4,062 bases of DNA, from positions 1 to 4,062 of IMG/VR virus record IMGVR_UViG_2675903654_000014, one strand, 5' to 3'. The translations under genes and the position numbers were made by a program. Positions within the stretch are counted from its first letter, which is position 1; each line of letters starts with the position of its first letter. Below, piece after piece: positions 1 through 3,710 of the stretch. The stretch is from a virus (lineage: Duplodnaviria; Heunggongvirae; Uroviricota; Caudoviricetes). The notes under the pieces are model-generated. The model did no database searches. It was not told the origin of the DNA and worked only from the letters and a program-made list of their open reading frames with translations.

Positions 1-227
1 GGGAAGGCTGGGCCATACTCCTCCGGCAGAAGCAGAAAAAGCTTATTATGCTTCCATCGGAAACGATGATCTGGCAGCCTGAGTTCACAGATAAAACACT
101 CTCCAGGAAACCCGGGGCGGTTCAAAACGCCCATGATTTTACAGGCTTTTGATACGTTGCTGAGTTCTTCAGCCAGATTGAGCAAACCGGCTTTGTGTTT
201 GATAACGGGATTGGTAGTATGAAGCAT
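1..227 (-). CDS. Partial CDS (start in window, runs off the left edge): putative DNA-binding protein with HTH-like N-terminus and a CxxC...Hx5H motif
   Basis: ATG at 227-225 on minus with GAGGT Shine-Dalgarno 8 nt upstream; frame open for 75 codons to position 1 with no stop. Translation begins MLHTTNPVIKHKAGLLNLAEELSNVSKACKIMGV, then ...GECFICELRLPDHRFRWKH. Absent from the ORF track because it is edge-truncated. Confidence 0.4.
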   Translation of the reverse strand, partial: MLHTTNPVIKHKAGLLNLAEELSNVSKACKIMGVLNRPGFPGECFICELRLPDHRFRWKHNKLFLLLPEEYGPAF

Positions 228-287
228 GAGAGTTACCTCGTGTTTTGTATAAGGATTCGACACCCATATCAAAACCGGTAACTCTCA
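227..287 (-). promoter_or_regulatory. Fold-back inverted repeat predicted to sequester the SD and AUG of the left HTH ORF
   Basis: Perfect 11-bp arms TGAGAGTTACC (227-237) and GGTAACTCTCA (277-287) separated by 39 nt. On the minus-strand RNA the downstream arm contains the last two G of the SD and the A of the AUG. Confidence 0.35.
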
Positions 288-350
288 ACCTTTCAAGGCT
301 CAGTGTCAGATCAAGTCGCGACTAATACACTCAATTCCATCATAAACTTC

Positions 351-2985: not shown

Positions 2986-3710
2986 ATGAAAAATATTGCG
3001 ACAGGCGGTGTTCTTGAACGTATCCGTAAGCTGGCTCCGCAGCATGTAACCGCGCCGTACCGGACTGTGGACGAGTGGCGAGAGTGGCAGCTTGCAGAAG
3101 GGCGAAAACGTAGCGAGGAGATCAACCGCCTGAATCGTCAGTTGCGGGTGGAAAAAATTCTGAATCGCTCAGGCATCCAGCCGTTGCATCGTAAATGCTC
3201 GTTTGCAAATTACCAGGTGCAGAACGACGGCCAGCGATACGCGTTNNNNNNNTGATGACCGGGGGTACAAATTTTGCGTTCAGCGGAAAACCTGGTACCG
3301 GGAAGAACCACTTAGCGGCAGCTATCGGAAATCGCCTGCTGAAAGATGGCCAGACAGTGATTGTGGTTACTGTGGCTGATGTTATGAGTGCCCTGCATGC
3401 CAGCTATGACGACGGACAGTCAGGCGAAAAATTTTTGCGGGAACTGTGCGAAGTGGATCTGCTGGTTCTTGATGAGATTGGCATTCAGCGCGAGACGAAA
3501 AACGAGCAGGTGGTACTGCACCAGATTATTGATCGACGGACAGCGTCGATGCGTAGCGTGGGAATGCTGACAAATCTGAACTATGAGGCCATGAAAACAT
3601 TGCTCGGTGAGCGGATTATGGATCGCATGACCATGAACAGCGGACGCTGGGTGAATTTTAACTGGGAGAGCTGGCGTCCGAATGTCGTCCAGCCAGGAAT
3701 TGCGAAGTAA
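2986..3710 (+). CDS. DnaC-like replicative helicase loader (AAA+ ATPase; YdaV-like), interrupted by a 7-N gap
   Basis: N-terminal part [20 protein letters not shown]...[26 protein letters not shown] and C-terminal part ...[20 protein letters not shown]...[10 protein letters not shown]...[22 protein letters not shown] align by eye with E. coli DnaC (Walker A GKPGTGK, Walker B LLVLDE). ATG at 2986 with GGGGG SD; stop TAA at 3708-3710. The two halves sit in different frames across the N-run at 3246-3252. Confidence 0.8.
3246..3252. other. Run of 7 ambiguous bases (assembly gap or masked sequence) inside the DnaC-like gene
   Basis: nnnnnnn in the sequence; flanking coding frames differ, and by alignment to DnaC about 11 residues are missing. 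Confidence 0.9.

Follow-up and report, generated by a model that had tools for sequence, protein, structure and literature searches.

The window analyzed here is the whole 4,062-nt stretch at the start of the IMG/VR virus record IMGVR_UViG_2675903654_000014; it is identical to part of the genome of Escherichia coli Z1323CEC0019 (NZ_CP148401.1), where it lies within a Rac/Qin-like prophage. Toward its left end an inverted repeat covers the translation start of a truncated gene on the minus strand. We conclude, at a probability of roughly 0.6, that this repeat is the base of a translational-control hairpin belonging to an insertion sequence (IS) of the IS481 family, and that the copy in the window is dead. 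The preliminary description of this DNA had proposed that the repeat occludes translation initiation of what might be an IS transposase gene, and this is borne out among relatives of the element, in which the pairing of the Shine-Dalgarno (SD) sequence, the spacer and the AUG is kept by covariation.

On the plus strand the arms lie at 227-237 (TGAGAGTTACC) and 277-287 (GGTAACTCTCA), 39 nt apart, and are perfectly complementary over 11 bp; they can be extended to 16 nt at 88% identity (222-237 and 277-292), and they form the sole inverted repeat in the window (seed 8, length of at least 10, distance of at most 120). Read on the minus strand, the upstream (5') arm of the stem is UGAGAGUUACC (277-287) and the downstream (3') arm is GGUAACUCUCA (227-237), which spans the last two bases of the SD sequence (G237-G236), the 8-nt spacer and the A of the start codon (A227 of the ATG at 227-225). 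The SD sequence is GAGG, at 236-239 on the minus strand and 8 nt 5' of the ATG, and AAGG or GAGG is conserved at this position among relatives. A segment upstream of the gene and inside the element is thus complementary to the ribosome-binding site (RBS) and start codon, which is the arrangement that defines fold-back inhibition, and both the coordinates and the complementarity put forward earlier were verified. The repeat alone is only mildly unusual, because a perfect 11-bp inverted repeat with a loop of 3-60 nt arises at least once in 6% of 2000 dinucleotide-shuffled windows; its significance comes from its conservation, with compensatory changes, in relatives.

The 11-bp arms noted earlier make up just the base; the complete structure is a three-tier hairpin of about 60 nt (225-287, minus strand; about -27 kcal/mol), which is supported by folding, by a covariance model and by covariation. 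In minus-strand RNA folded from the end of the IS, the outer stem of 10-11 bp (287-277 with 237-227) encloses a middle stem, GUUUUG(AUA) with (UAU)CAAAAC, and an apical stem, GGGU/AUCC, with the loop GUCGA at 261-257. The covariance model matches the window at 225-286 with 94.7 bits, and all 57 of 57 distinct leaders have, as their own minimum-energy fold, the same architecture ending at the start codon. When 330 nt of the window's read-through RNA (480 to 150) are folded, the mean pair probability of the outer stem is 0.95. Single-sequence energy is not the support for the structure (the whole-leader fold, over 140 nt, has a modest z of -1.59). We also considered the hairpin as an intrinsic terminator and ruled this out because no U-run follows it; a consensus promoter and terminator scan of 100-700 returned two terminator-like matches, at 115-132 and 419-438, unconnected with the inverted repeat.

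The relatives used for comparison come from 14 plasmid and 80 genome loci, have 74-86% amino-acid identity, and belong to Mixta, Serratia, Klebsiella, Vibrio, Shewanella, Acinetobacter, Neptuniibacter, Undibacterium, Arsenophonus, Gallibacterium, Burkholderia, Roseibium and other genera. Their outer arms (5' and 3') read AGAAAGUUACC and GGUAACUUUCU in Acinetobacter, GAGCGUUACC and GGUAACGCUC in Methylophilus, GAGAGUUUCC and GGAAACUCUC in Gallibacterium, GGAGGUUACC and GGUAACCUCC at locus L095, GAGGGUUACC and GGUAACCCUC in Roseibium (L098), and AAAAUUACC and GGUAAUUUU in Arsenophonus; a Burkholderia copy that starts with GTG preserves the pairing, with its GUG start paired (CGGGGUUAC and GUAACCCCG). 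For the outer stem, in a MAFFT alignment of 51 sequences, 96.1% of the cells are paired, as against 19-44% when the 3' partner is slid, and seven of the 11 pairs have changed on both sides; none of 500 shuffles was as high. MAFFT followed by RNAalifold recovered the outer stem only, with the 3' half of the inner stems misaligned. For the full hairpin, in a covariance-model alignment of 48 distinct sequences and 20 pairs, 97.6% of the cells are paired (25-56% when slid), 11 of the 20 pairs have changed on both sides (53 cells), and the covariation is 0.178 versus 0.017-0.068; by tier, five of 10 outer, four of six middle and two of four apical pairs covary.

The covariance-model alignment is itself biased towards the structure. 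Comparing the folding of each sequence's own two halves with that of halves swapped between sequences needs no alignment and is therefore an independent check: the whole hairpin folds at -25.5 kcal/mol with its own halves and at -21.4 kcal/mol with swapped ones (0 of 5000 permutations), and the inner stems on their own fold at -10.9 and -8.3 kcal/mol, respectively (again 0 of 5000).

The gene whose start is covered by the hairpin is the remnant of a transposase gene. Window positions 125-329, on the minus strand, are the first 205 bp (the left end) of a 1201-bp IS481-family element whose position 1 is window 329. The left terminal inverted repeat lies at 303-329 (minus strand; TGTATTAGTCGCGACTTGATCTGACAC) and agrees with the right end of intact copies when that end is reverse-complemented; the minus-strand sequence at the 329 end begins TGTATTAGTCGCGAC..., and 329 is also where shared homology ends when the copies are compared (the window, the ylbG pseudogene of E. 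coli K-12, and relics beside betA and yafV). The truncated gene (126-227, minus strand) retains 34 codons (MLHTTNPVIKHKAGLLNLAEELSNVSKACKIMGV), encodes an N-terminal winged helix-turn-helix (HTH) and is annotated as a C-terminally truncated pseudogene. Its 34 codons agree with the start of K-12 YlbG at 32 of 34 positions. For the 123-aa K-12 YlbG, the best match is NCBIfam NF033577, the IS481 transposase (2e-25, profile positions 2-112), with a score of 89.9 bits that falls short of the cut-off of 224 set for full-length proteins, since nothing beyond the N-terminus exists; Pfam HTH_29, a winged HTH, also matches this longer homologue at 1.8e-20, in keeping with the earlier designation of the left open reading frame (ORF) as an HTH ORF. 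Extending the sequence leftward had been suggested as a means of learning whether the ORF is a transposase flanked by terminal inverted repeats. The profile match and the annotated intact relatives place it in the IS481 family, the intact relatives have such repeats together with 7-bp target duplications, and all of them use the same start as the ATG at 227.

Intact relatives, found on plasmids and chromosomes, are 1200-1215 bp long and encode a 346-aa transposase annotated as IS481 family. Their terminal inverted repeats are imperfect, about 27 bp long, begin with TGT and match at 18-22 of 26 positions, and their 7-bp target duplications include AATAAGG, CCTTACC, CTTTATT, GCTAATG and TTTAATG. 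Transposase profile, terminal inverted repeats and target duplications all assign the element to the IS481 family, of which the window retains the left end only (the repeat at 303-329). The source strain carries an intact 1201-bp copy at NZ_CP148401.1 986,472-987,672 (401-1601 of our locus L100), at the end of nanQ and flanked by a TTTAATG duplication, and window 125-329 is 100% identical to positions 1-205 of this copy. There are seven places on this chromosome that match the IS. A full-length copy is present in 77 of 5,426 complete E. coli genomes and fragments in 3,600, and the rarity of full-length copies makes the element look recently active in the source strain. The K-12 ylbG pseudogene is a relic of the same IS group, has 96% identity over window 125-329 and carries the same hairpin, which scores 85 bits with the covariance model built here. 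Unlike the window copy, which is a recent insertion identical to the intact element, ylbG is an older relic at another chromosomal site, by mnmH, that keeps 123 codons.

In the window the element is cut off by a second IS. Positions 1-124 (plus strand) are the right end of IS1203, of the IS3 family, with its transposase coding sequence running to 82 and its terminal repeat ...CCCGGGGCGGTTCA ending at 124 (PGAP annotation), and the ylbG-type homology begins at 125, directly abutting it (junction 124/125). The fragment is a recently inserted IS481-family element that was later cut after codon 34 by IS1203, and with the transposase truncated at that codon the hairpin is left without a cis target in the window. 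Beyond the other side of IS1203 in the genome, a recE-like PD-(D/E)XK nuclease gene is likewise truncated (region covered: window 1-124 and L001 3829-6124). This arrangement suggests that IS1203 inserted and that an adjacent deletion then took away part of the prophage DNA together with most of the IS481-family element.

The preliminary description had also proposed a local promoter that would start the transposase mRNA inside the loop. Its hexamers are present on the minus strand, as a candidate -35 element TTGAAA (291-296; fixed position, varying flanks) and a candidate -10 element TTTGAT (268-273), with a 17-nt spacer, and they are conserved at fixed positions and spacing (TTGAAA in 43 and TTTGAT in 48 of 56 distinct relatives); the candidate promoter is weak and non-canonical, and a consensus scan did not pick it up, and the earlier interpretation as a whole is partly supported. 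The predicted start near 261, 7 nt past TTTGAT, is the first base of the apical loop. A non-canonical sense promoter has precedent in the prototype IS481, because the -10 element of its weak inward promoter Pin, mapped by rapid amplification of 5' cDNA ends (5'RACE), is equally non-canonical (TTCACT, with a -35 element TGGAAA; PMC11774165). A native transcript that starts in the loop, and hence lacks the upstream arm, is plausible but unproven. Around TTGAAA, in the stretch that separates the main hairpin from the terminal repeat, a second, small hairpin appears by eye to covary. We do not claim it, given its weakness (0 to -5 kcal/mol, mean z -1.3) and its absence from about one-quarter of the sequences, and TTGAAA is better taken as a conserved hexamer than as part of a hairpin.

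Folding of both transcript forms agrees with the fold-back layout, giving the hairpin of about -27 kcal/mol when the 5' arm is included and, for a 73-nt RNA from 262, only local structure of -4.4 kcal/mol without it. In the mechanism that we propose, a sense transcript containing the 5' strand would fold into the hairpin and ribosomes could not load; this would certainly apply to transcripts that enter from outside, which in the window means from the ydfA-ydfB operon of the prophage. The weak internal promoter TTGAAA-17-TTTGAT would start transcription at the apical loop, yielding a 34-nt leader that lacks the 5' strand and would retain only the weak local structure. The same repeat would also form the stem-loop of an outward antisense RNA (psRNA2) that starts near the start codon from a promoter in codons 3-12 and whose complementarity spans the short leader entirely, a relation like that of RNA-OUT to RNA-IN in IS10.

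A candidate antisense RNA is suggested by Rfam family RF02349 (psRNA2, 'Proteobacterial sRNA'), which matches the plus strand at 230-388 with 37.2 bits (E 8e-8). Because this is under the gathering score of 65, the window is a diverged homologue and not a formal member of the family, and only 230-329 of the match falls inside the IS. On a relative from Burkholderia glumae (L015, 1281-1478) the model scores 144.6 bits and ends 2 nt from the GTG start; seven other relatives score 33-58 bits and K-12 scores 31.1 bits. The psRNA2 consensus is the reverse complement of a Burkholderia-type left end, its annotated structure contains the hairpin and the terminal repeat, and the model takes in about 84 nt of flank outside the IS; psRNA2 looks like the antisense strand of an IS481-family left end plus flank, rather than a free-standing small RNA (sRNA) gene. 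The sequence family is therefore already in Rfam, without a link to a role in transposase control, and we found no such link between psRNA2 and the IS481 family in Rfam or in the literature.

A candidate outward promoter for this RNA lies within the coding sequence, with a -10 element TAGTAT at 215-220 (plus strand; the reverse complement of codons 3-5) and a -35 element TTGTGT at 193-198 (plus strand; the reverse complement of codons 10-12), separated by a 16-nt spacer. Among 64 distinct coding sequences, synonymous variation collapses in codons 3-6 (CAT in 100%, ACT in 98% despite its four-fold site, AAC in 98%) and again in codons 10-12 (AAA in 100%, CAC in 86%, AAA in 94%), and four-fold sites outside both blocks have an entropy of 1.3-2.0 bits. 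TAGTATG is present in 60 of 75 copies; the K-12 relic differs from the window copy in having CAGTAT as its antisense -10. TTGTGT-16-TAGTAT scores under the threshold of the promoter scanner; it would place an outward start at about 227-230, which is also the point where the Rfam model begins. When folded, antisense RNA starting at 228 gives the same stem (pair probabilities 0.83-1.00), with a predicted sense/antisense overlap of about 34 nt in which the 5' end of the sense RNA faces the antisense loop. In the prototype IS481 the outward promoter Pout was mapped by 5'RACE, and its transcript overlaps that from Pin by 19 nt (PMC11774165). The repeat in the present element probably encodes an antisense RNA as well, which, judged from these sequence features, would give a two-layer control like that of IS10.

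The strongest competing explanation carries this further and holds that the repeat was selected mainly as the stem-loop of the outward sRNA, an RNA-OUT-like psRNA2 that would pair with the transposase leader and block translation in cis and in trans, so that the sense fold-back is an incidental by-product of a palindrome. RF02349 is indeed defined on the antisense strand and reaches almost to the start codon in L015, the clade members tested match it, synonymous variation collapses at the -10 and -35 elements predicted for the outward promoter, the antisense RNA folds the same stem, and Pout of IS481 has been mapped experimentally. The strand test points the other way: in 43 of 50 sequences the sense strand folds more stably than the antisense strand, the average difference being 2 kcal/mol, and an apical G.U pair that is conserved in 42 of 48 rows would become an A.C mismatch in antisense RNA. 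Together these are suggestive in favor of the sense strand, and they are not decisive because the sequences are related. Also against an exclusively antisense role, psRNA2 may be a computational family (no account of how it was defined turned up in the literature examined, and part of its model lies outside the IS), the K-12 relic yields no antisense transcription start site (TSS; see below), and 'only' is the weak part of the claim, since IS10 uses one repeat for both functions. We regard this explanation as unlikely, if still a serious one.

A second alternative follows IS200. The native mRNA would start upstream of the 5' arm, for example from a promoter in or beside the terminal repeat or at a circle junction, so that the hairpin is in every mRNA and translation is permanently low. 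It is in favor of this model that no canonical promoter is found between the arms, that the small, partly covarying hairpin around TTGAAA, 5' of the main one, fits an RNA covering that region, and that IS200 itself works in this way (PMC4513863). That 5' hairpin is weak, however, no better promoter is visible upstream, and the sequence and spacing of TTGAAA and TTTGAT are conserved beyond what pairing needs, and we judge the model improbable, somewhat more so than the one above.

Third, the arms might be sites for the transposase or a host protein on DNA (subterminal repeats around GTTACC), their complementarity arising from the repetition of the sites. The right end of the element does carry GTTACCnGTTTT...GGTG[TC]C directly after its terminal repeat, and the 5' half of the hairpin, including its sequence-conserved apical GGUGUC, resembles this subterminal region, displaced by about 20 bp; within one element the variable bases that follow GTTACC agree between the left and right ends. 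The agreement suggests recognition by the transposase at the DNA level, which would account for the strong conservation of the 5' strand. Three lines of evidence show independent selection for the complementarity of the left arms. Covariation between the arms extends to positions without a right-end counterpart (GAGA/UCUC is replaced by AAAA/UUUU, GAGG/CCUC, GGGG/CCCC or GAGC/GCUC); the arms have kept their complementarity in elements whose right-end copy has drifted (GTCCCC in L094, ATTACC in L095, GTTATC in L098 and GTTCCC in L067); and covariation in the middle and apical stems involves quite different sequences, while identity in the HTH region stays above 75%. G.U pairs also occur in the hairpin alignments. 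As the sole origin of the repeat, protein binding to DNA is very unlikely. As a separate observation on the right ends (L006 to L098; for example, L006 2548-2599), the left-end GTTACCnGTTTT and GGTG[TC]C motifs lie about 20 bp further in, or about two helical turns, with the TTGAAA segment between, and these subterminal motifs are probably transposase-binding sites. A functionless repeat that arose by chance, for which the frequency in shuffled windows might speak, is refuted by conservation with compensatory changes in about 50 distinct relatives, where its position with respect to the start codon is the same, and we give it practically no credence.

Several points weigh against the reading that we prefer, a sense-strand hairpin that controls translation. 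It does not operate in the window, where the copy is dead and no transposase is left for the hairpin to regulate in cis. The sense and the antisense transcripts are both predictions: the consensus scan of 100-700 found no sigma-70-like promoter on either strand, and it did not call TTGAAA-17-TTTGAT because T, not A, is at -11 (position 2 of the -10 hexamer). In the Cappable-seq data for MG1655 that were covered (plus strand, up to about 1 Mb) there is no TSS in 528,315-529,667 (U00096.2), and thus none at the K-12 ylbG relic, which has the CAGTAT variant and whose coordinates were placed provisionally, from gene positions cross-checked with an allA TSS. Nor is ylbG mentioned in the supplement of Romero et al. 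2014, and its mentions in Urtecho et al. concern the landing-pad locus only. Covariation cannot tell which strand folds, and the 2 kcal/mol sense advantage is largely one shared G.U pair. Finally, binding of protein to the DNA probably accounts for some of the conservation seen in the 5' half of the hairpin.

Mechanisms of this kind are known from IS10, IS50, IS200 and ISPpu9, and from IS481's Pin and Pout. Fold-back inhibition of read-through transcripts was reportedly described for IS10 by Davis, Simons & Kleckner in 1985. As in IS10 (Tn10), one transposase-proximal inverted repeat would have two uses here, pairing of the RBS and AUG in sense read-through RNA and formation of the antisense RNA stem, with the antisense loop facing the 5' end of a short native mRNA. 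IS10 is unlike the present element in belonging to the IS4 family, with no sequence similarity to it, and here both promoters and both RNAs are predicted, with the antisense promoter in codons 3-12. The overlap of RNA-IN with RNA-OUT is quoted in PMC4513863 as 35 nt, close to the approximately 34 nt predicted here. In IS200, similarly, the SD sequence in the 5' untranslated region of tnpA is sequestered by an inverted repeat of about 70 nt at the left end, in combination with an antisense sRNA, art200, the stem-loop and art200 being redundant layers acting on 30S binding (PMC4513863). The IS200 stem-loop lies within the native mRNA, which starts at about nt 40, and a separate terminator stops impinging transcription (PMC4513863); IS200 also differs in being an HUH (Y1) rather than a DDE element. 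IS481 of Bordetella pertussis is of the same family, and its weak Pin faces the outward Pout in the 5' region of the transposase gene, with overlapping transcripts. The transposases are only distantly related and the prototype is compared here through its published description; the overlap predicted for the present element is longer (about 34 versus 19 nt). Transcripts from Pout run out into neighboring genes, and that study describes no conserved RBS-occluding hairpin (PMC11774165).

For the window copy itself, the live possibility is residual outward antisense transcription from 193-329, where the candidate antisense promoter and the hairpin are still intact. The fragment could still make an RNA-OUT-like antisense RNA from this segment, repressing intact copies in trans, or reading out antisense to ydfB-ydfA toward the repressor gene, which we consider a long shot. 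If true, a dead IS end would be a copy-number brake on the intact copies of the strain, and the outward RNA might influence prophage early-gene expression, as Rfi2 of IS481 does for fim2 in B. pertussis.

To the right of the fragment the window continues into the prophage, with ydfB (351-479), a ydfA-like gene (DUF1391; 490-636) and a repressor-like gene (942-1361) on the minus strand, followed on the plus strand by a cro-like gene (1458-1700), ydaT (1697-2119) and replication genes from 2197. Three AACAC-N5-GTGTT palindromes (821-835, 844-858 and 1419-1433; two perfect and one with a single mismatch) flank the repressor-like gene, lying upstream of ydfA and in the promoter region from which the repressor and cro genes diverge; none of 200 shuffles reached three matches, and they are probably operators. 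A GC-rich hairpin with flanking A-runs and T-runs (AAAAAGCCCGCTGATAGCGGGCT...), seen by eye at 890-915 directly downstream of the repressor-like gene, is likely a bidirectional intrinsic terminator between that gene and ydfA-ydfB. Just upstream of and within the replication-protein gene (2197-2979) are three perfect GTAACGC-N5-GCGTTAC palindromes (2165-2183, 2357-2375 and 2564-2582) at a spacing of about 200 bp, with a chance expectation of 0.00, which are candidate origin or iteron sites. Seven N at 3246-3252 split a ydaV/DnaC-like ATPase gene into two ORFs; it is intact (747 bp) in the matching genome record.

For the window, the inverted repeat is a vestige of a recently truncated IS and regulates no prophage gene. 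For the family, the finding is that an RBS-occluding hairpin is conserved, and covaries, across a large and widespread IS481-family clade (Enterobacterales, Vibrio, Shewanella, Acinetobacter, Burkholderia, Roseibium and others); in this family post-transcriptional control has so far been examined mainly for IS481 itself. An IS10-like layout has apparently been reached independently in an unrelated IS family. The orphan Rfam family psRNA2 is recast as the antisense face of an IS end, which matters for sRNA annotation and for the near-universal ylbG relic of E. coli.

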